Assembly (NCBI GenBank): GCA_964539135.1 | Contig: CAZIFG010000001.1 | Span: 1,251-65,250, forward strand | DNA length: 64,000 nucleotides | Reading direction: 5' to 3' | DNA from: an uncultured Rickettsiales bacterium | GTDB lineage: Bacteria > Margulisbacteria > Marinamargulisbacteria > GCA-2716485 > CAZIFG01 | Shown here: positions 2,842 through 60,833 of the stretch, one piece after another | Layout: each line of letters starts with the position of its first letter | Position numbering within the stretch: position 1 is the stretch's first letter | The notes under the pieces: model-generated | What the model was told of the DNA's origin: nothing | What the model saw: the letters and a program-made list of their open reading frames with translations, nothing else | The model's database searches: none | Program-made: the position numbers and the translations under genes

Positions 2842-3744
2842 ATGGAAACAGTCGGCTTTTTTTATCGTAAAATATGTCATGAGTTGGCCCCTGTTGCAGA
2901 GTCTCAATCTGATCTTGAAGCAGAGTGGCTCTTTTGTTTTGTTTTAAACTGTTCTCGATCCCAATTTTTTTTGCGGTTTTCAGATCTTTTAGTGCCAGAT
3001 GTGCAGTTAAATCTGGAGGCTTTGGTTGCGCAGCGGCTTACAGGAAAGCCCTTGGCTTATATTTTGGGCTCTGTTTCCTTTATGGGGCGTGTGTTTCAGG
3101 TGAAAGAAGGCGTTTTAATTCCACGTCCTGAAACCGAGCGCTTGGTAGAAGAAAGTGCGTCTCGTTTGAGGCAAATTCTAGGAGATAGACCCTTTATTGG
3201 GTTTGAATGTGGGTGTGGTACGGGTGTTATTTCCTTGAGTTTAGCCTCTTTGTTTCTTCAGTCTCGATGGGTGGCCTGGGATATTAATGCGGCGGCCATT
3301 GCCTGTTCCATTCAAAATGCTCGGCAGCTGGATCTTGTGGATAGGGTGACGTTTATAGAAGCGGATTTTTTTGAGGGCCTTTCGCAACAGCCCCAAGGTG
3401 ATGATTATAAAGAGGTGATGATTCAGGATTTACCCTTGGTTTTTGTGAGTAATCCGCCCTATATTTCGTCTTTTGACTGTACCCAATTGGATGCGAGCGT
3501 GACATCTTTTGAGCCTTTATCGGCTTTGGATGGAGGCGTTGATGGCTTGGACTTTTATCGAAAATTTAAGACCTTTATGAGTACATTTAAGCCTATTTTT
3601 TCTGCTTTTGAACTGGGGCAATTCCAATTTCCAGCGGTTCAGGCGATTTTTCAAGATATGGGACATACAGAAGCCTATCTGGATTATCAGGGCATTCAGA
3701 GAGGGATTATGGTTTCGCAACAGTCCCATGATTTTAAGTCTTAG
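2842..3744 (+). CDS. prmC: Release-factor glutamine N5-methyltransferase (HemK/PrmC)
   Basis: SAM-binding GCGTGVIS and catalytic NPPY (VSNPPYI). Classic position downstream of prfA. Confidence 0.85.
   Translation: METVGFFYRKICHELAPVAESQSDLEAEWLFCFVLNCSRSQFFLRFSDLLVPDVQLNLEALVAQRLTGKPLAYILGSVSFMGRVFQVKEGVLIPRPETERLVEESASRLRQILGDRPFIGFECGCGTGVISLSLASLFLQSRWVAWDINAAAIACSIQNARQLDLVDRVTFIEADFFEGLSQQPQGDDYKEVMIQDLPLVFVSNPPYISSFDCTQLDASVTSFEPLSALDGGVDGLDFYRKFKTFMSTFKPIFSAFELGQFQFPAVQAIFQDMGHTEAYLDYQGIQRGIMVSQQSHDFKS
3713..3727 (+). repeat. Solo terminal-repeat fragment of the palindromic element, inside the 3' end of prmC
   Basis: TTTCGCAACAGTCCC is identical to the right terminal repeat of the element family. 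It encodes the prmC tail ..VSQQSH. Confidence 0.5.
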
Positions 3745-3755
3745 GGATAAATTTT

Positions 3756-3897
3756 GGGACTGTTGCGAAACGCCTATTTTGGCCATCTGCTGTGTTATCC
3801 TCGTCCTCAAGTCCTCATTTATGTCTCATAAACTCCGGGCTTTCGGACTCGGAATGCCTTGCAGCTGATCCAAACGTAGTCATTTCGCAACAGTCCC
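3756..3897 (+). mobile_element. Palindromic miniature element, copy 1 (142 bp), between convergent prmC and the sigma-54 activator gene
   Basis: GGGACTGTTGCGAAACGCCTA ... TAGTCATTTCGCAACAGTCCC terminal inverted repeats. Flanked by ATTTT at 3751-3755 and 3898-3902. Followed by a T-run. Confidence 0.85.
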
Positions 3898-5427: not shown

Positions 5428-6270
5428 TCAAGAGCGTGTGCTGAGTGCTGGAAGTATCGCGTCTGGGGTTCCCCATTTGGTGCATTCTTCTGCTTCTGAA
5501 TATTGAAAGGCGATACCTGTGTCTTTGATCCAACAGCCGCTTATTCCCAATTCTGTTTGCAGTGCCATGACATTTTCTAAATTGTCATCAAAAAACCATA
5601 CGCTTTTATCTAGGGTGAGAGTGGATGTGTCTTGGATGATTTTTTTTACAATTTTTGTAAAATTGGAGAGTGGTTTTCCGATCCAATGGATGGGGCGTTG
5701 TAGGATTTCTTCTAGTGTTTCGGCATAATAACCTACAACTGCTTGGTGTCTATCTTGAACTCGAATCATGCGATCTGGATTGCAACAAATGACGGGAATT
5801 TCAGGGGTATGATGGCAATGAGAAATAAGAGGCGCTAATACATCGTGTGTATTGTCTCTGGGACCTGATGTTAAAACAATGACTTCGCTTTCCTCTACGT
5901 GAGGTGTTATTTTTTTGGCTTTTGCACGGATTATATATTCATGAGAATAGGGGGATCCAAAGACGTAGGCAATTTTGTTTTCGATGAGCCTGCGTATGAC
6001 CGGATCATGTTCTAACCCACTACCAGATGAAATGATATGGGATTCTGGGATATGAATGCCAAACGTGTTCAATCGCGTTTCTATTCGTTTTGGATTTTGA
6101 AAGGCATTGTTTGTGATCAGATAGCAGGGACCCAAGGTTTGAAAGTGTTGGATGATTTCAGGCACAGATTCAAAGGCAGAGGGTTTGTCTGTATAAATCA
6201 CACCGGAAGCGTCCAATAAAAATCCTTTTGGATTGCTTTTTAAGATCTCGGTTAAGGTGCGTTTGATCAT
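5428..6270 (-). CDS. HAD-superfamily hydrolase, subfamily IIA-like
   Basis: LLDASGVIY motif I-like, ITNNA, and FFDDN near the C-terminus. Start chosen at the ATG that forms an ATGA overlap with the ispE stop. Confidence 0.65.
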   Translation of the reverse strand: MIKRTLTEILKSNPKGFLLDASGVIYTDKPSAFESVPEIIQHFQTLGPCYLITNNAFQNPKRIETRLNTFGIHIPESHIISSGSGLEHDPVIRRLIENKIAYVFGSPYSHEYIIRAKAKKITPHVEESEVIVLTSGPRDNTHDVLAPLISHCHHTPEIPVICCNPDRMIRVQDRHQAVVGYYAETLEEILQRPIHWIGKPLSNFTKIVKKIIQDTSTLTLDKSVWFFDDNLENVMALQTELGISGCWIKDTGIAFQYSEAEECTKWGTPDAILPALSTRS

Positions 6271-7235
6271 AAACTTTCTGTTGCTACCATCTGAAGGGGG
6301 CATTCTAGACTTAGTTTTTCTTTATAATTTTCGGCTTCGCTTAGGGTGTTAAATGGGATAAATAAAGTAGAGCCGGATCCAGACATATACCATTGTTTGG
6401 GACTTATTTGAGTGAGTGTATCTGTTATTTTTTTAAGTTCTGGATACAGAATAAGTGCAGGTTCTAAGAGATCATTTTTTCCCAGTAGGGGATTTGGGCA
6501 AATGGGGTGGGCGGGTTCTTTTGCTGCATGGGGATACTGTTCATCGAATGTTTTATAGATTTGGGTGGTATCGCAGTGGATATTGGGAAAAATCAGCAGG
6601 TAAGCTTGAGTTTTACTTGGAAGGCTTACGATGTTTTCTCCAATGCCATAGACCCAGGCACATCCACTTTGGGACTGTTGTGAAATGCCTATTTTGGCCA
6701 TCTGCTGCGTTATCCTCGCCCTTAAGTCCTCATTTATACCGTATAAACTCTGGGCTTTTGGACTCGGAATGCCTTGCATATGATCCAAACGTAGGCATTT
6801 CGCAACAGCCCCACTTTTTAAAAAAAAGGGGACATCGGAGCCGGCTTTTAGTGCAATGGGGATTAAGCTTTCAAGGGGATGATTCCAAGATTCTAAGGTA
6901 TTCAAAACATTTAAAAAACAGGCGGCATTACTGCTTCCGCCACCGAGTCCGCCTCCCATGGGAATGTTTTTTTCAATGTGGATGTGGTAGCCATACTGAC
7001 AGGGCAGTTGTTGATATATTTTCCAGAGGATATTGGTTTCATTGAGCGGAACATCAGGATGTGTGGCTGTGATTTGAAGCCCTTTTTGGGTGCTTTGTTC
7101 TATGGTGAGGGTATCTGAAAGGGAGAGGGTTTGAAAAATAGAATTGATCGGGTGATATCCATTAGATCGCGGTGCATAGATCTGTAAGGATAAATTTAAT
7201 TTTGCAGGAGATAAGTATTTAACTTTTTTTAACAC
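6267..7235 (-). CDS. ispE: 4-diphosphocytidyl-2-C-methyl-D-erythritol kinase carrying an in-frame 49-codon element insertion
   Basis: KLNL.L start region, GHMP kinase motif PMGGGLGGGSSNAA, GSDVPFFL ... GIGE. The ORF is 322 aa, or about 273 aa once the insertion is removed. GTG start. Confidence 0.85.
   Translation of the reverse strand: MLKKVKYLSPAKLNLSLQIYAPRSNGYHPINSIFQTLSLSDTLTIEQSTQKGLQITATHPDVPLNETNILWKIYQQLPCQYGYHIHIEKNIPMGGGLGGGSSNAACFLNVLNTLESWNHPLESLIPIALKAGSDVPFFLKSGAVAKCLRLDHMQGIPSPKAQSLYGINEDLRARITQQMAKIGISQQSQSGCAWVYGIGENIVSLPSKTQAYLLIFPNIHCDTTQIYKTFDEQYPHAAKEPAHPICPNPLLGKNDLLEPALILYPELKKITDTLTQISPKQWYMSGSGSTLFIPFNTLSEAENYKEKLSLECPLQMVATESL
6671..6812 (+). mobile_element. Palindromic miniature element, copy 2 (142 bp), inside the ispE coding sequence
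   Basis: Full-length match to the family. Flanked by ACTTT at 6666-6670 and 6813-6817. 142 + 5 = 147 nt = 49 codons, with no stop in the ispE frame. Confidence 0.9.
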
Positions 7236-8188: not shown

Positions 8189-8225
8189 ATATGAGGACTT
8201 CTAATAGGCGTTTCGTAACAGTCCC
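8189..8225 (-). repeat. Truncated, internally deleted copy of the palindromic element (left arm only, opposite orientation)
   Basis: The reverse complement reads GGGACTGTTACGAAACGCCTATTAGAAGTCCTCATAT, matching the left repeat plus the AAGTCCTCAT core. It ends 3 nt from the AAGGAG Shine-Dalgarno sequence of the PPIase gene. Confidence 0.6.
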
Positions 8226-18346: not shown

Positions 18347-18565
18347 TTATTTTGCCCTAAATGTAATGCGGCCTCTTGTTAAGTCGTAAGGGGATAATTC
18401 TACTTTGACTTTGTCGCCCAATAAAATTCGGATATAATTTTTTCGCATTCTGCCTGAGATATGGGCTAAAATAATCTGACCGGTCTCTATTTCAACTCGA
18501 AACTGAGCATTTGGAAGAGATTCTATGATTTTACCTTCAACTTCAATTGTGTCATTACCTGCCAT
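18347..18565 (-). CDS. infA: Translation initiation factor IF-1
   Basis: 72-aa S1-like protein: [25 protein letters not shown]...[32 protein letters not shown]. The longer 128-aa track ORF is an artefact of the upstream element. Confidence 0.9.
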
Positions 18566-18621
18566 GATAGAATATATCCTATCACGGGTAGGGCGTTTGT
18601 AGAAGGGGGGTTTTTTTGGGG

Positions 18622-18757
18622 GGGGCTGTTGCAAAATGCCTATTTTGCCCATCTGCTGTGTTATCCTCGTTCTTAAGCCCTCATTTTCACATATAAGGGC
18701 TTTCAGACTCGGAATGCCTTGCAGCTGATCCAAACGTAGGCATTTTGCAACAGCCCC
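18622..18757 (+). mobile_element. Palindromic miniature element, copy 3 (136 bp, 6-nt central deletion), in the infA upstream region
   Basis: Perfect 21-bp terminal inverted repeats (GGGGCTGTTGCAAAATGCCTA / TAGGCATTTTGCAACAGCCCC). The left boundary is blurred by a G-run. Confidence 0.85.
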
Positions 18758-22131: not shown

Positions 22132-22626
22132 TTAACGGCTTACTTCGGCCTTGGAAAGGTGTTTTTCACTATCAAGCAAGTGTTTTTTGATCTCTTGACC
22201 GTTTTCTTTTGTCTCTCCACATGAATATTGACCTATTCCGCCTGACTTCGGCACAACACGATGACAGGGGAAATAAAGAGGGAAGGGATTGTTGGCAAGT
22301 GCTGTTCCTACGGCTCTTGCAGCTTTTGGCATTCCGATATTTTGTGCAATTTCAGCATAATATCGAGTTTCACCTAAGGGGATTTGAGAGACTTCCTCTA
22401 AGACTTTTTTTTGAAATGGCGTTAGACGTGTTGTATCGATGATTTGGTTTTTTAATGCCCCTACAAGGATGCTTAAGGAGACTGGGCCATTTTCTGATGG
22501 AGATAGCTGTATTCTAATTACTTCTCCTTTTGCATTATAAGACCATTTTATATCTAGGGACTGTTGCAAAACGCCTATTTTGGCCATCTTCTGTGTTATC
22601 CTTGTCCTCAAGTCCTCATTTATCAT
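22132..22626 (-). CDS. ogt: Methylated-DNA--protein-cysteine methyltransferase; its present start codon and first 24 codons lie inside an element copy
   Basis: Active site PCHRVV and helix-turn-helix YAEIAQNIG..KAARAVG. See the finding on the interrupted 5' end. Confidence 0.75.
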   Translation of the reverse strand: MINEDLRTRITQKMAKIGVLQQSLDIKWSYNAKGEVIRIQLSPSENGPVSLSILVGALKNQIIDTTRLTPFQKKVLEEVSQIPLGETRYYAEIAQNIGMPKAARAVGTALANNPFPLYFPCHRVVPKSGGIGQYSCGETKENGQEIKKHLLDSEKHLSKAEVSR

Positions 22627-22698
22627 CTATAAATTCCGGGCTTTCAGACTTGGAATGCCTTGTATATGATCCAAACGTAAGCATTTTGCAACAGTTCT
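22557..22698 (+). mobile_element. Palindromic miniature element, copy 4 (142 bp), inserted in the 5' end of ogt
   Basis: Full-length family match, flanked by ATCTA at 22552-22556 and 22699-22703. Confidence 0.85.
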
Positions 22699-22838
22699 AT
22701 CTATATTTAATAGGGAATTCTGGTTTTTCATGGCATTATTATAACATGATTTCTTTATTTTTATATTTTTTGATTTTTTATATTTAATGTTGTTTATTTT
22801 TATTTTATTTTTTAAATTTATGTGGTATATTTTGGCTC

Positions 22839-23768
22839 ATGAAAAAAATAATTGCTTCTGTTCCGGCTCGTTTTATAGCGGTTCTTCCTCATCATAAGCC
22901 GTTTTCTAAGGATTATTTCCAGTGGTATCGTTTTAAGTTTTTGCCTGCGGATTTTTTTACTACGCCTTTGTATGATTCTACGAGTTACCAAGGCGATCGT
23001 ATTTATGCCTTTCTTTCTGATCTTTCTCATTTGGATCCTCCTGACCTTCTGGCTCTGTTTCCTTCTAAAATAGAGATGACTCCGAAGGAAACTGTTGCCT
23101 TTTTATCTCATTTATTTAAACAGGGTGCTTTAGAGGCGGCAGGTTCTTTTTTAAAAATTGTGTCTATTTTAGATCCGGGGCAGTTTAAGCTTTGGTTTAA
23201 ACCGGATCATTCTCTTTCACCTTCTTCTTTCTCACTTGTTTCTTTTTTATACACTTCTATTTTTGAGGTTTCTAATATTCGAACCCCAGAGTCTAAAATG
23301 ACGGCTATGCATCAGGTATTGAGTTATATGCCGCGTGAAATTTTGACGACTTCTACGCTTAAGGAGGTGTATTTGAAACTTCAGTCGATCCATGCCGTTT
23401 TTGGCGCAGAGATTGTGGATGCTCAACTTAAAGCATTCAATGCTATTTTGGCTCAACATGGATTTACGCCGATTTCATTTCCTACTTTTTCACCTCCAAA
23501 GCCTGTTGTTCCAGAGCTTGTATTGCTGAAAGGGGATATTTTTTCTACTCCTCGTTTTGGTTCTGATACGGATTTAAACTCTAAGGCGAAGCCTCTTTGT
23601 ACTAGTAGGATTAAATTTTCTGATCTTCCTTCTTCTGACTGGATCCCGGGGGTGGGGGAGGGGAAGCGCGCTAAAGTGACGGTTCTTCCTCCTTCAACAG
23701 AGGGTTCTCCTAAGAATTTTAATGAGGGCGATTTCATGGATGATATTGGTTTCCCTTCCTCCCCCTAG
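22839..23768 (+). CDS. Hypothetical protein (309 aa), Ser/Pro-rich C-terminus
   Basis: Long ORF preceded by a very AT-rich 140-bp region. No recognisable motifs. Confidence 0.45.
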   Translation: MKKIIASVPARFIAVLPHHKPFSKDYFQWYRFKFLPADFFTTPLYDSTSYQGDRIYAFLSDLSHLDPPDLLALFPSKIEMTPKETVAFLSHLFKQGALEAAGSFLKIVSILDPGQFKLWFKPDHSLSPSSFSLVSFLYTSIFEVSNIRTPESKMTAMHQVLSYMPREILTTSTLKEVYLKLQSIHAVFGAEIVDAQLKAFNAILAQHGFTPISFPTFSPPKPVVPELVLLKGDIFSTPRFGSDTDLNSKAKPLCTSRIKFSDLPSSDWIPGVGEGKRAKVTVLPPSTEGSPKNFNEGDFMDDIGFPSSP

Positions 23769-29956: not shown

Positions 29957-30093
29957 GGGGCTGTTGCAAAACGCCTATTTTGGCCATCTGCGGTGCTATC
30001 CTCGTCCTCAAGTCCTCATTTATACCGTATAAGGGCTTTCGCTCTCGGAATGCCTTGCAGCTGATCCAAATGTAGGCATTTCGCAACAGTCCC
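29957..30093 (+). mobile_element. Palindromic miniature element, copy 5 (137 bp, 5-nt central deletion), upstream of the ABC exporter gene
   Basis: Family match with both terminal repeats. Flanks are CTAGG (29952-29956) and CTCGG (30094-30098), matching at 4 of 5 positions. Confidence 0.85.
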
Positions 30094-47936: not shown

Positions 47937-49405
47937 TTTCGGAACAGCCCCCTTTTTAGTCGTATATAGCCGATACTTAATATACCGAATGCGACGTAAA
48001 TGATCAGGTCTCCTACTTTTGCGTAGAGGCTTTGTTTTAAATTCATAGGGAGGGTTGCACGGATTACCCCCCTTGTATTTAGGGGCATTTTTTGGATGTC
48101 TTTGCCGTTATTGGAAATGATGCTGGAAATCCCCGTACTTGCAGATTGAATCATGTATTGATTCATTTCAATGGCGCGTAAACGGGTCATTTGGAGATGT
48201 TTTTCAGCGGCAGAGCTGTTTAGGAACCAGGCATTATTGGCCAGTGTACATAATACAGTCGCGCCTTGTTGACCAAACTGTCTTGAGGCACCGGGGTAGG
48301 TGGATTCTAGACAAATAGAGGGTCCAATTTTGAATTGATGGATGCTTAAGGGGCCTTCGTTTTTACCCTTTGAAAATTCTGCGCCTGGGATGATGTTCTT
48401 TAATCCGAATTTTAAAAATAGGGATTTTAAGGGCCAATATTCGCCAAAAGGCATGAGCTTCATTTTGTTATAGGGTGGGTTTAAGCTGCCATCTTTAGAG
48501 ATGAGTGCCGCACTATTATAAATGTGATCGTTTTGTCGATAGGGTGTTCCAAATAGGATATGTGTTTGGTAGGTTTGTGTGATTCTTTTTAGGTCTGTCA
48601 TGAACCATTGTCGTTCTAAATTAAAATCCGGTGTAATCGTTTCGGCCCAGACTACCAAATCGGCGGGGGCTTTTTGAAGGGCTTCTTCTGTGAGGTCTAA
48701 ATATTCTTTTCTAAAGGGCGTCCAGTAAGGGGCTTGAAATTTTTTGTCTTGGCTTTGATTGGGTTGCACGACCAGGACACGTAGCGTTTCTTGAGAGGTG
48801 GGTTCTTTTTGATTTTTGAGTATGAATCCGAGACTTTCGCTGCTCATGATGAGGATACCGCCGAGAAGGAGATAGGTGAGCCCTTTTTTGGATCTATTTT
48901 CATAGGCACTGAATAAAAGGGCATTTATTGCGATTATAATGGCGGATATTAAAAATACGCCCCCTAGCTTTGCCAGTAGAATAAATGGCTGATGACTTGC
49001 TTGTGAATAGCCTATTATGCCGCCTGGGCTTCCAAATGGGCCGATGGATTTTAAATATTCTAGCAGGATCCAGATTAAGGGCATCCAGTGTATTTTTTTT
49101 TTTAAATGGCCAAAGATCCAGCCGATGATGCCGGTATATAGGCCAAAAAAACAACTTGAAAGGATCCATAAGCAGATGACACCGATTTTAGGGCCCCAGG
49201 CACTGAGTGTGAGCATCCAACTGTTAAACCCTGCCATGAATAAGACGCCCCATAAATAACCATACAGGGCCGTGTGTTTTGAGTGTGTGAATACATAAAA
49301 AAGTGGGATTAGGGCAACAAAGGCAAGGCCATACAGATTAAATGGTGGGAAGCTGAGTAGTGTTAGTACTACAGATACTAGAATTATAAGACTTCGGCTT
49401 GCCAT
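47933..49405 (-). CDS. lnt: Apolipoprotein N-acyltransferase
   Basis: Multi-TM N-terminal half and CN-hydrolase C-terminal half (VVWAET, PFGEYWP, ICLEST). Confidence 0.85.
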   Translation of the reverse strand: MASRSLIILVSVVLTLLSFPPFNLYGLAFVALIPLFYVFTHSKHTALYGYLWGVLFMAGFNSWMLTLSAWGPKIGVICLWILSSCFFGLYTGIIGWIFGHLKKKIHWMPLIWILLEYLKSIGPFGSPGGIIGYSQASHQPFILLAKLGGVFLISAIIIAINALLFSAYENRSKKGLTYLLLGGILIMSSESLGFILKNQKEPTSQETLRVLVVQPNQSQDKKFQAPYWTPFRKEYLDLTEEALQKAPADLVVWAETITPDFNLERQWFMTDLKRITQTYQTHILFGTPYRQNDHIYNSAALISKDGSLNPPYNKMKLMPFGEYWPLKSLFLKFGLKNIIPGAEFSKGKNEGPLSIHQFKIGPSICLESTYPGASRQFGQQGATVLCTLANNAWFLNSSAAEKHLQMTRLRAIEMNQYMIQSASTGISSIISNNGKDIQKMPLNTRGVIRATLPMNLKQSLYAKVGDLIIYVAFGILSIGYIRLKRGLFRN

Positions 49406-56962: not shown

Positions 56963-57676
56963 TTATTCCTTTAATAAGAGACCTTCAAGTTGCAGTCTCG
57001 TGTTGGTATTGTAGTGAAGGGCTTCTAGGGTGTCTACTATTCTTTGGATTATGTAGATGTTAGGGGGTGTTTCTTCTGTCAATTCCTGGATCCACTCATA
57101 TAGAGCTTCTTGGGCACTTTCTTTGTTTTCGGCCAGAATTTCAAGTGCGCTTAATTGGTCTATTAGCGATTTTTTTTTCAATTCTGTGTAGGGAATATGT
57201 TTTTTTTCGGACTTAGTCTTATTTTTTTCTGTGGGAAAATATAGGGGCTGACACCGTGACCAAATGGTTGGCAGTATGGCTTTGGGTTGCGTTGTGGTTA
57301 ATATAAAGATAACGTGATTCGGGGGTGTTTCCAGTGTTTTTAAAAAGGCATTGGCGGCTTGCACGGTAAATGTGTGGGCATCGCATAGGGTTACAAAGAG
57401 GGGATCTTGATTTGGAGAGCCATATTTTGTTTTTTCTATTAATGCCCGGATATCTTCTATTTTGATGCTGTTTTCTGTCTTTACTCTCAAATGGTTGGGA
57501 CTTTCTTTAGCGCTTTGAAGTCGTTTTTCAATGAGGTAAGTGGCGGCTAATTCTAGATCTGCCGCGCATTCTCCGTAAAAGAGATAGGCGGCATCTAGGG
57601 TTTTATGTTCAGAGAGGGCATCTAAAAAGGCTTTATTTTTGTTTGAAAATAAAGTGCCGGTTTCATCATTTGTCAT
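56963..57676 (-). CDS. holB: DNA polymerase III delta-prime subunit (short form)
   Basis: AYLFYG with a degenerate P-loop, NAFLKTLE(T)PP, TIWSRCQ (SRC motif). Confidence 0.6.
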   Translation of the reverse strand: MTNDETGTLFSNKNKAFLDALSEHKTLDAAYLFYGECAADLELAATYLIEKRLQSAKESPNHLRVKTENSIKIEDIRALIEKTKYGSPNQDPLFVTLCDAHTFTVQAANAFLKTLETPPNHVIFILTTTQPKAILPTIWSRCQPLYFPTEKNKTKSEKKHIPYTELKKKSLIDQLSALEILAENKESAQEALYEWIQELTEETPPNIYIIQRIVDTLEALHYNTNTRLQLEGLLLKE

Positions 57677-59526
57677 GAATGAATGTGTTCGGCCATTTCA
57701 ACATCGTATAAAATATCATCAAATTGATGGCGATATAAGGGCATGTTGAGTCGTTTTTCATCTAACACATGGCCGATAAATCCGATGGTTCTCCCCAATA
57801 TAAAAAAGGCATTTAGTGTGCCTGTTTCGATGAATTCTTGAATTTCACTGTCGGTATAATTTAAGCCTTTCCACATGTCCACCATGAGAACGCCTATGGC
57901 ACCATCTACATTTAAAATTAAATTGTCTTTTTTAGAGGATGTAATGAGTTCTACTTTTGAGGCATAGTCTAATAAAGGGGTGCTTGGAAATGCAGTTTTG
58001 GCATATTCTTTTAGACTTTTGACTCGAAGGTCAGGGTTTCTTAAGGATTTAATGCGATGTCCGATTCCAGGGATGGGAATGCCTTTTTGTTTCATGCTTT
58101 CTACAAACTCTCTGGGGTCTTGAGCGCTGTCATAGGCGATTTTAAAATGGCGTGCTGTATCATCAATGGCACCCCCAAATTTGGGACCTATGGTTAAAAG
58201 ACCACTGGCTAAGCAGGATACGACGTCTTTACCTGCGCGTGCCGAGACCCTGCAATTGTGGGCGCCGCTGACCGCAGGCCCGTGATCGGCGACGGTTTTT
58301 AAAACCGTTTCTATAAAATCGCTGGCCCATTTTGGATATCTTTTTTTGAACCATAATAAACTGACAACATCTGCGATGCTGAATCCTGTATCAGGTGTTG
58401 CTACTTTGCTGATGGGATATCCGGCGTAAACAGCTTCATCTCCTCTATCATCTGAAATGGTACAGATAAAGCTGGTTTCTTTTCTGATTTTACCTTCTTT
58501 TTTTGCCGTTGAAAAATCGATGGGAAGTTTTGGAATGACAGGTTCTTTTTGTTTTTGAATCACACCTTCCGCTTGAAGGCGTTGAAACACAGCATGAATC
58601 ATGTCTGGTAGTTCATTGAAAGATTTAGGGACTCTAAATCCAGCCTCTTTCATGGCTTCGTTTTTGGCTTTTGCGGTTTCTTTTTTATCATTAGCACTGG
58701 CACCGGCATGTCCAAATTGTACACTGGCGCTAAAATGTTCTGCGACGGTGCCAATACACCAGGCCACAATGGGTTTGGTTATTTTTCCAGATTTTACAGC
58801 TTCAATTACCTCATATTCTGCGAGTCCACCCACTTCTCCTAATAAAATGAAATATTTAATGTCAGGGTTTTTTTCCATTCGGAGGAGATGTTCGAGATAA
58901 GAAGACCCGGGATATCGATCGCCCCCTATGGCAATACCTTCTGAAATGCCATCCGCTTGAAGTGCTGTGATATTGGCCAGCTCATTAAAGAGGCCGCCAG
59001 ATCGTGTTACAAGACCTGCGGATCCTTTGAGGTGAAGTTTAGATTGGATAATGCGCTCGTTGGTACCGCCAAGATTCCCGGTTTTAAAGGCCCCGGGGGA
59101 AATGCATCCCACTGTTGCGGGACCAATAATGATTTTTTTGAGTTGCTTGGCTTGCGTATTGAGTTCTCTTGTGAGTCGTTCGGGAACGCCTTCTGCCGTG
59201 ATCATGATGGTTCGAATGCTTGGGATCTCTAAGGCTTCTTTTGTAACCTGATGGGCGGTTCTAAATGAGGCAAAATTGAGTAAAATATCAGCATGAGGGT
59301 ATGCTTCTGCGGCTTCTTCGGTGCATTTATAAATGGGGATAATGACCTCTGTATTTCCAAAGAAAAACTTTTCAAAGGAGGTGCTGCTTGTGGGATGAAT
59401 AATGGCGGCCACAGAGGGCGTTTTACGATGAATAATATAATCGTAATCCAACATGCGTTGAATGGCTTTTGCGTTGTTATTCCAAAATAAGGCCTGTGTT
59501 TCAGGGGTGAATAATGTGTTTGTCAT
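57673..59526 (-). CDS. aclA: ATP-citrate lyase alpha (large) subunit
   Basis: CoA-binding/ligase domains with phosphohistidine loop SVQFGHAGASA, plus a C-terminal citrate-synthase-like domain. 617 aa. Confidence 0.85.
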   Translation of the reverse strand: MTNTLFTPETQALFWNNNAKAIQRMLDYDYIIHRKTPSVAAIIHPTSSTSFEKFFFGNTEVIIPIYKCTEEAAEAYPHADILLNFASFRTAHQVTKEALEIPSIRTIMITAEGVPERLTRELNTQAKQLKKIIIGPATVGCISPGAFKTGNLGGTNERIIQSKLHLKGSAGLVTRSGGLFNELANITALQADGISEGIAIGGDRYPGSSYLEHLLRMEKNPDIKYFILLGEVGGLAEYEVIEAVKSGKITKPIVAWCIGTVAEHFSASVQFGHAGASANDKKETAKAKNEAMKEAGFRVPKSFNELPDMIHAVFQRLQAEGVIQKQKEPVIPKLPIDFSTAKKEGKIRKETSFICTISDDRGDEAVYAGYPISKVATPDTGFSIADVVSLLWFKKRYPKWASDFIETVLKTVADHGPAVSGAHNCRVSARAGKDVVSCLASGLLTIGPKFGGAIDDTARHFKIAYDSAQDPREFVESMKQKGIPIPGIGHRIKSLRNPDLRVKSLKEYAKTAFPSTPLLDYASKVELITSSKKDNLILNVDGAIGVLMVDMWKGLNYTDSEIQEFIETGTLNAFFILGRTIGFIGHVLDEKRLNMPLYRHQFDDILYDVEMAEHIHS

Positions 59527-60833
59527 GCTACAACTCCTTCTTTTTCTTCTTCTAAGGCCATGCGAATGATATCGGTAATATGGGTGTTTGGCCCATAGAC
59601 TTGGATGGGTAAATGGAGCCTTTCACCGGCAGCTTCCATTAACTTTAAGCCTTTTTCGTAGTTAGGGCCGCCACGACGTACGTATGTTTTTACCTTGTTT
59701 TTTTGAAGCGCGGGGGCAAATTCTTCAAGCGCTTGAATAATGCCTGCGAAGGTTTTGGCGACGTCTGTAAAATTGGCAATGGCGCCACCGATAATTAGGA
59801 TTTTATCTTCTTCTCTGGGGTGTTCGACCATTAACTCTAATAGGGTTTTGGTGTAAATATAGGTTTCTTCTGTGGTTGGATTCCCAGAGTATTCGCCGTA
59901 ATTGGCCAATTCACTGATGCCCCAGGCATTGTCTATGGTGTCAGCGTACACAACGGAGGCACCGCCGCCAGCTACCAAGGTCCAGAGTCGTCCATAAGGA
60001 TTCAGAATTGTGAGCTTTAAACTGGATCCAGATTCTTCATCTAAGGCTTTGATGCGTTCTTCAGCCGCACTTAAAGGACGCATGCCAAAGGGGGAGGGGA
60101 ATTCGATAGGGCCCCATTTTTCTGTGATTAAAAATTTTGCGGTATCGTCTACTTTGGCTACTGCATCTAAGAGATACACCGTATTGTCTTTAATGACGAC
60201 AGGATTGAGTTCTAAATAGCAAAAATGTAGGTCTTTAAAGAAGGCATAAAATTGTGTCGCAAATACGGTAAAGGGCGTGTTTTTTAATCCATTTGGCATG
60301 CCTTTTTCTATTTTAGAGGCGATATCTTGCTCTGATAGATTGAGCGGAATTCGTATTTCTGTGGTTTTGTCCCAATTTTCTTCTACTTCAATGCCACCGT
60401 AGGGACTGATGACTAAAATATCGTCATAATCGTCGGTTCGAGCTGAAATATAGTATTCTTCTTCTTGGTCGTGGGGGGCAAAGGGCTCCACAATGTAATG
60501 GGATAAAACACCTGAAATCCCTGATAAAAGGGTGGTTTCTTGTGTGTTGTGTTTTTCAATCCACTCACAGGCTTGTTTTAAATTGACATCACCTGCTTTT
60601 TTTTCTTTTAAATATACAAGGTTATTTTTGCCTCGTTTTCCAAATAGCATGTCGGGTTTTACAACCAGTCCGCTTTGATTCAACCATGGATTTACTTGGG
60701 TTTGATCTTTTAACATTTGTCCCGAACAGGCTAGAACAGAATTGAAATGATATTTAAATCCTTTGAAATACGTTTCCCAATGAGTATGAAATAGGGATTT
60801 ACAGGTGTATTCTCGTATGTCTCTTTGTGCCAT
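59523..60833 (-). CDS. aclB: ATP-citrate lyase beta (small, ATP-grasp) subunit
   Basis: ACL-type N-terminus (IREYTCKSLF...), ATP-grasp and citrate-binding regions. ATGA overlap with aclA. 436 aa. Confidence 0.85.
   Translation of the reverse strand: MAQRDIREYTCKSLFHTHWETYFKGFKYHFNSVLACSGQMLKDQTQVNPWLNQSGLVVKPDMLFGKRGKNNLVYLKEKKAGDVNLKQACEWIEKHNTQETTLLSGISGVLSHYIVEPFAPHDQEEEYYISARTDDYDDILVISPYGGIEVEENWDKTTEIRIPLNLSEQDIASKIEKGMPNGLKNTPFTVFATQFYAFFKDLHFCYLELNPVVIKDNTVYLLDAVAKVDDTAKFLITEKWGPIEFPSPFGMRPLSAAEERIKALDEESGSSLKLTILNPYGRLWTLVAGGGASVVYADTIDNAWGISELANYGEYSGNPTTEETYIYTKTLLELMVEHPREEDKILIIGGAIANFTDVAKTFAGIIQALEEFAPALQKNKVKTYVRRGGPNYEKGLKLMEAAGERLHLPIQVYGPNTHITDIIRMALEEEKEGVVA

Follow-up and report, generated by a model that had tools for sequence, protein, structure and literature searches.

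A transposable element inserted in frame in ogt places a stop codon directly before a start codon at its hairpin tip

The ogt gene, encoded in a 64,000-nucleotide stretch of contig CAZIFG010000001.1 (assembly GCA_964539135.1; this stretch is the window referred to below), is interrupted by one copy of a dispersed palindromic repeat that is a non-autonomous transposable element of the miniature inverted-repeat type (MITE). The insertion keeps the reading frame, and at the hypervariable tip of the element hairpin it carries a stop codon, TAG, followed immediately by an ATG; this structural part is secure. For the translation of the interrupted gene we tentatively favour a route in which a short upstream open reading frame (ORF) is read to the stop and the ribosome then restarts at the abutting AUG, and we weigh this against inactivation of the gene, an independent start further inside the element and read-through of the stop.

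Structure of the interrupted ogt locus

The locus lies on the minus strand, where 22731 to 22132 is a single frame interrupted by one stop codon, the TAG. Copy c4 of the element, with terminal inverted repeats GGGACTGTTGCAAAA ... TTTTGCAACAGTTCT, interrupts ogt, a gene of 150 codons, behind codon 11 (Table 1), and the ogt mRNA bears the reverse complement of c4. As the 142 bp of the element and the 5-bp target duplication sum to 147 nt, the insertion adds 49 codons and the frame is kept. Excision of 22557-22703, that is, the element and one ATCTA, gives a 150-aa ORF beginning MKNQNSLLNIDIKWSYNAKGEV. An earlier reading of this DNA, made from the sequence alone, had placed a mobile element about 10 codons into ogt, in the element frame used in ispE, and had proposed that removing the copy and one ATCTA rebuilds a continuous ORF; repeat, duplication and excision analyses bear out both claims.

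As that sequence-only reading had also held, the present sequence contains two ORFs in place of one. The upstream ORF, of 34 codons, consists of the ancestral ATG (22731-22729) followed by 10 codons of native and 23 of element sequence, and ends at the TAG (22629-22627). With zero nucleotides between this stop and the ATG at 22626, the pair lies well inside the spacing of about -8 to +10 nt given for termination-reinitiation pairs (PMC10666635). The second ORF, of 164 codons, opens at ATG 22626 and derives its first 24 residues from the element. A third ATG, absent from the sequence-only reading, is the start chosen in the public gene call for ogt, P0001 (22587; 151 aa, MAKIGVLQQSL...).

Table 1. 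Coordinates in the window of the features at the ogt locus and of the other copies of the element
Feature	Coordinates	Strand	Remarks
ogt copy c4 of the 142-bp palindromic MITE-like element	22557-22698	+	member of repeat family; hairpin dG -49.8 kcal/mol, z -6.6
Left 5-bp target-site duplication ATCTA	22552-22556	.	removal of the element and one duplication copy restores the ORF
Right 5-bp target-site duplication ATCTA	22699-22703	.	same excision basis as the left copy
34-codon upstream ORF	22627-22731	-	sequence identical in 4 other assemblies
TAG-ATG stop-start pair	22624-22629	-	at the apical loop (5 nt) of the hairpin in the predicted fold
164-aa ogt ORF	22132-22626	-	residues 1-24 element-encoded; begins MINEDL; native sequence from DIKWSY
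Element-internal ATG	22585-22587	-	present in all 9 copies; 39 nt past the TAG; paired in the hairpin stem
Putative extended -10 box, perfect, TGTTATAAT	22738-22746	-	ends 6 nt before ATG 22731
Copy c1	3756-3897	+	intergenic; prmC and a sigma-54 activator gene converge on it; duplication ATTTT
Copy c2	6671-6812	+	inside ispE (6267-7235, minus strand); duplication ACTTT
Copy c3, 136 bp	18622-18757	+	upstream of infA
Copy c5, 137 bp	29957-30093	+	intergenic, upstream of an ABC transporter gene; imperfect duplication CTAGG/CTCGG

The 164-aa ORF is an Ogt protein by its PF01035 match (E 2e-28), its PCHRV motif and its matches to Ogt/AGT structures in the PDB. In a 40-sequence alignment, all 18 invariant and 10 nearly invariant positions are kept in the ORF downstream of the stop. 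The insertion point is just N-terminal to a conserved beta hairpin (DIKWSYNAKGEVIRIQL), upstream of which homologues carry from 0 to more than 25 unconserved residues, a segment of variable length. Modelled with AlphaFold2, the 164-aa form reaches a mean pLDDT (predicted local distance difference test score) of 78.9, with the catalytic domain above 90 and the first beta strand predicted from residue 24; element residues 1-22 are modelled as a low-confidence helix and linker, an appendage on a confident core. No Ogt above 48% identity was found among 5.8 billion proteins, and the nearest homologues (at most 48-60% identical) are not syntenic.

The five nucleotides of the hairpin tip are the only hypervariable part of the family in an alignment of nine copies. 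The tips read GAGAC, ACGGT (two copies), ATGTG (two copies), AGATG (the ogt copy), AGATA, TGTA and TGGTA. In the ogt frame the tip provides codon 24 (TNN) and codon 25, and at this position the ispE copy reads TAC GGT where the ogt copy reads TAG ATG, a difference that had been pointed out earlier and that the copy alignment upholds. The AGATA tip of another copy is a single A-to-G transition away from AGATG, and the copies closest to c4 by shared variants (c2 and the copy at 16918 of contig L086, from the same genome) bear different tips. The stop-start pair may thus have come with the inserted copy or may have arisen afterwards.

TAG terminates 12 of the 55 long ORFs in the window and is therefore an ordinary stop in this genome. 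The sequence-only reading had allowed that the TAG might be an assembly error. As far as the available data reach, this is excluded, as TAG-ATG is identical in four other assemblies. Short-read assemblies do break at this repeat, and the contigs on the pepN side break within the 3' arm at one common junction; an artefact of assembly or sequencing in the repeat is nonetheless scarcely credible. Contig NODE_2671 of ENA analysis ERZ3430527 covers 14.2 kb with seven single-nucleotide polymorphisms (SNPs) elsewhere and is identical over the element, including TAG-ATG. Logan contigs from SRR17828886, SRR7369911 and SRR7369912 extend from the neighbouring gene across the 5' arm and the tip without a difference in that part. 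The 5' arm, apex and junctions agree across the four. The apex sequence is, moreover, unique to c4, so it could not have been borrowed from another copy. No empty-site allele (junction TTAAATATAGATATAAAATGG) was seen in other samples, where every contig contains the insertion or ends within it, and the insertion with its stop-start pair is fixed in five of five assemblies.

The repeat family and its in-frame copies

The window holds five copies of the element, of 136-142 bp and 79-100% identity, where none would be expected by chance, and four further copies lie on contig L086 (2569-17059). The nine copies, spread over 84 kb on two contigs, range from 136 to 143 bp with a modal length of 142 bp, and outside the tip they show about 90% column identity. 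Terminal inverted repeats of roughly 30 nt (GGGACTGTTGCRAAA...) are present at both ends, each copy folds as a whole into one long hairpin (computed dG -43 to -72 kcal/mol; on the minus strand the copies other than c4 give -47 to -72 kcal/mol), and AT-rich 5-bp target duplications are perfect in five of the nine copies (ATTTT, ACTTT, ATCTA, ATGAT and ATAAT), match at four of five positions in two more and are lacking in two. The inverted repeats, the hairpin and the 5-bp duplications, together with the size and the dispersed copies, define the element as a MITE. It encodes no transposase, as its only open frames specify 47-residue peptides, and it is non-autonomous. A partner transposon or transposase was found neither in the window nor by scans with the element core and terminal repeat. 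The core had no matches in 185,579 representative genomes or in JGI metagenomes, the terminal repeat had none in metagenomes, and extensions of the window ends in the genome sample contained no additional copies.

Copy c2 lies in a 322-aa GHMP-kinase ORF, ispE, which reads through it without a stop in the element frame that ogt uses too. Residues 1-143 and 192-322 of IspE align to contiguous positions of solved IspE structures and nothing is deleted, so the protein gains a clean 49-residue point insertion, located in a surface turn after GSDVPFFLKSG. The orientation shared by the ogt and ispE copies is no independent coincidence, and their shared frame is only a 1-in-3 event, because the nine copies all point one way and ispE and ogt share the minus strand.

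ispE and ogt are the only two genes found to hold in-frame copies, and the consensus of the family has a single open frame in each orientation. When the peptides of both open frames were used in a profile search, one extra protein only, P0131, was recovered; genic in-frame copies are thus rare among called proteins, with the caveat that ispE itself is masked by a truncated cluster representative. P0131 is a small ORF on L086 (10001-10248) that is truncated by a copy in its other open frame. Its N-terminus (KIYTIRGLTVMLDRDLAALY) resembles a DNA-binding domain of the ORF6N/KilA-N type, and a 71-aa RuvX fragment lies nearby.

All nine copies share one orientation relative to the skew of the plus strand (two-sided binomial probability about 0.004). 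In the window and on L086 alike, the GC skew of the plus strand is about +0.15 whatever the strand of the genes, with a strong AT skew as well; the elements themselves carry the opposite skew to the plus strand and are not co-oriented with transcription. This pattern suggests orientation-specific, possibly replication-coupled, insertion or transposition. If the co-orientation with GC skew were confirmed genome-wide, it would point to replication-coupled transposition for a MITE.

Several further features of the copies were noted. The c4 hairpin is among the weakest in the family (-49 kcal/mol, compared with -52 to -72 for most others) and its outer repeat is degenerate (AGAACTG for GGGACTG), which could be decay or relief of a translation block. 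At the edge of c3 (18600-18625) the sequence is rich in homopolymers (CCCCCCC AAAAAAA CCCCCC, minus strand), and no clean target duplication can be defined there. Solo 15-nt right-end repeats (TTTCGCAACAGYCCC) occur at 3380-3394, 3713-3727, 8211-8225 and 47937-47951, all in right-end orientation. The first two are in frame within prmC (2842-3744), where they encode LSQQP and VSQQS, and the very first is exactly where one Logan contig ends. These solo repeats could be what lost copies left behind, or sites at which a transposase binds.

Translation across the insertion

In the route that we tentatively prefer, Ogt would be expressed by way of the upstream ORF and a restart at the abutting AUG. 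The ancestral ATG at 22731 would still be in use, probably as the first base of a leaderless mRNA transcribed from the TGTTATAAT box, and would now open the 34-codon ORF that ends at the hairpin tip. A ribosome at the UAG would have melted the entire 5' arm of the hairpin, and on terminating it would restart at AUG 22626 (termination-reinitiation). The product would be the 164-aa Ogt, in which the first 10 unconserved residues are exchanged for 24 element-encoded ones predicted to lie outside the fold, the catalytic domain being untouched. The conserved element ATG that follows after 39 nt may add some initiation of its own, giving the 151-aa form.

The upstream start is suggestive of a leaderless mRNA. 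ATG 22731 has no Shine-Dalgarno (SD) sequence, and the -10 geometry of its putative box is seen again at the divergent gene at 22839, at pepN (22122) and at lepA (33072). Overall, the extended -10/leaderless geometry occurs at 6 of 44 starts, compared with 3.6% of all ATGs and 9% of those preceded by AT-rich sequence. No element-borne promoter directed toward ogt was found by a consensus scan. The predicted fold of the mRNA leaves AUG 22626 unpaired in the apical loop, with the UAG at the loop edge. Reporter work has found reinitiation to be efficient at overlaps or at gaps of up to about 10 nt and almost lost at 38 nt (PMC10666635; PMC6728339). Because published efficiency has fallen away by 38 nt, these distances favour ATG 22626 over ATG 22587, provided that the upstream ORF is translated.

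As a side observation, a -10-like hexamer lies 5-9 nt before the start, with no SD sequence, at pepN (22122), ogt (22731), the 309-aa neighbour (22839), the ABC transporter gene (29918), lepA (33072) and infA (18565), and three of these six have the extended TGn form. The pattern hints at a wide use of leaderless mRNAs by the organism.

A number of observations weigh against a restart and are shared in large part by the reading in which ogt is simply a young null allele, where the in-frame stop has inactivated a dispensable repair gene and chance in the hypervariable loop put an ATG behind the TAG. We regard such inactivation as a serious possibility, almost as probable as the restart. Judged by the composition of the tips, about 30% of copies should have a stop at codon 24, and c1, an intergenic copy, has TGA at the codon equivalent to the ogt TAG. 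By chance an ATG would adjoin the stop in about 3% of cases, and any start codon in about 9%, and the coincidence was chosen post hoc. There is no SD sequence before ATG 22626, in a genome where about one third of genes have one, and neither internal ATG has one at good spacing. Against a background matched for upstream AT-richness, the -10 geometry shows no significant enrichment. A different copy, in P0131, does truncate a small ORF, and ogt is dispensable in many bacteria.

The intact state of the downstream ORF does not separate the two. The ogt copy of the element has 4 private substitutions in 136 (about 3%), at which level about 0.5 stop-creating changes would be expected in ogt. The insertion is thus young, so that an intact downstream ORF is also expected of a young dead gene, and we rejected as underpowered the argument that the intact ORF implies selection. 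A variant strain (contig L083, from SRR17828886) has 8 SNPs in 3.9 kb, and its only change in ogt, P83H (window position 22379), falls at a position invariant in 40 homologues, whereas pepN in the same contig has four synonymous and three non-synonymous changes; P83H hints at relaxed constraint. What speaks for a functional gene is that the strain in the window retains every conserved Ogt residue, that the segment replaced is an unconserved N-terminal tail, and that the insertion and its stop-start pair are fixed in the five assemblies, with no empty site seen. The geometry for a restart is also unusually favourable: the spacing is 0 nt, the AUG stands in a predicted loop and the probable start of the upstream ORF is intact.

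Initiation might instead occur independently at the element ATG 22587, with the purine-rich GAGGACAAGGA as a weak ribosome-binding site, in which case the element would serve as a start module that it carries along, and the upstream ORF would be irrelevant. None of the nine copies departs from this ATG or from the purine-rich stretch, AGGA lies 11 nt upstream, and this is the ATG that gene callers choose at ogt, at infA and in a truncated ispE contig. The infA case shows how little such calls reveal. There the element frame of c3 reads without stops into infA (18347-18757 for the two together), and the public call begins at the element ATG (101 aa), 28 codons upstream of the true IF-1 start at 18565; this public start is clearly wrong, so the choice of the caller is no evidence of use. 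The conserved purine-rich stretch and ATG mislead gene callers at all three loci, which means that repeats of this kind systematically corrupt the annotation of starts in metagenome-assembled genomes. In addition, the ATG and the stretch upstream of it are base-paired in a predicted hairpin of -50 to -55 kcal/mol, the 11-nt spacing borders on the workable limit, and an ATG 39 nt from the TAG is too distant for efficient reinitiation. We therefore consider an independent start here improbable.

Read-through or recoding of the TAG, giving a 199-aa Ogt with the full 49-residue insert as in IspE, is very unlikely. Apart from the TAG the frame is continuous, and a protein can tolerate the full insert, as the copy in ispE shows. 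Set against this are the ordinary use of TAG as a stop in the long ORFs of the window and the tRNA complement, the sole tRNA in the window being tRNA-Arg(ACG), with no suppressor seen there; we also know of no read-through signal for this TAG context. Of the three outcomes that the sequence-only reading had put forward, read-through is in this way set aside as unlikely; a start donated by the element is tentatively preferred, with disruption of the gene a strong competitor.

A broader version of the reinitiation route, which we consider rather doubtful, would join it to the properties of the family. A replication-oriented MITE that spans 49 codons together with its duplication and has two open frames would be pre-adapted to residence within genes, and the stop-start pair at its tip would make the leaderless ogt a two-step cistron, the short ORF opening the hairpin and handing the ribosome to the start in the element. 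If true, this would be a natural case in which a transposon both breaks and rescues the translation of a gene. The narrower claim has its own consequences: were the stop-start pair at the hairpin tip used, it would provide a compact natural model of termination-reinitiation on a leaderless mRNA and would show a gene surviving a transposon hit at its 5' end.

Host lineage and comparison with known systems

The best named relatives of the LepA encoded in the window are from Candidatus Margulisbacteria and Marinamargulisbacteria (71-74% identity), and other metagenome proteins reach 79%. Against representative genomes LepA has at most 62% identity, spread over many phyla, which is uninformative, and the representatives include no close genome. 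The window also encodes ATP-citrate-lyase-like proteins, FliF and a sigma-54 activator. The ATP-citrate-lyase-like pair (56963-60833; Citrate_bind/Citrate_synth_N and Ligase_CoA/Citrate_synt) adjoins flagellar and Lpt genes.

The family is new and its behaviour is known; the 5' stop-start is unproven and compatible with chance. We found no literature on MITEs in Margulisbacteria or on the sequencing runs used. Restarts after nonsense codons are classically known from lacI and T4 rIIB. As in the stop-start gene pairs that undergo reinitiation, where the codons touch, no SD sequence is needed and dependence on distance is strong (PMC6728339, PMC10666635), the two ORFs at ogt abut directly. The ogt pair differs in lying within one former gene, in being made by the tip of a transposon and in keeping the same frame on both sides, and the restart would be its presumed use.

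In-frame insertions of MITEs have already been described for Rickettsia palindromic elements (RPEs), ERIC, Anabaena MITEs and QMITEs (PMC10969869; PMC5896051). MITEs of the Correia, ERIC and BOX types form a long co-transcribed hairpin that is a possible RNase III substrate or modulator of translation (PMC10969869, PMC3184786). The element described here has a long hairpin as well and differs from them in that no Rfam family matches it at gathering or permissive thresholds. TIMEs (Tn3-derived MITEs) have AT-rich 5-bp duplications, long terminal repeats and no coding capacity (PMC4133298), all of which are found here, but they are about 262 bp long with 38-bp repeats homologous to the ends of the Tn3 family, compared with 136-143 bp for this element. 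Membership of the TIME/Tn3 group was considered and rejected, as plasmid records give only chance matches of 20-26 nt with E of 1 or more. With the Tn3 end, the element has only a GGG start in common. The QMITE1 and QMITE2 elements of Coxiella burnetii reach into functional genes at their ends, supply them with terminal residues or stops and form strong mRNA hairpins (PMC5896051), in which they are like the present family, and ogt is incidentally also among the genes that QMITEs touch. QMITEs affect functional genes at their 3' ends, whereas at ogt it is the 5' end that has been reshaped, with displacement of the start codon.

The closest parallel in behaviour is with the RPEs, palindromic repeats of about 150 bp that are inserted in frame in unrelated housekeeping genes, where permissive sites tolerate them, and encode a conserved peptide, in the account of Ogata et al. 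2000 given in PMC10969869. The likeness is seen in the 49-codon insert of ispE, which is free of stops, and in the same frame with its one stop in ogt. Relative to RPEs as that account presents them, the element here has clear terminal inverted repeats and 5-bp duplications, and one of its two genic in-frame copies holds a stop and splits the gene rather than fusing with it. The host is unrelated to that of the RPEs, being Margulisbacteria-like with the gene content of a free-living organism, and the resemblance is functional only. In-frame palindromic repeats are best known from Rickettsia, and the same behaviour in an uncultivated, deep-branching, free-living lineage indicates that it is more general.

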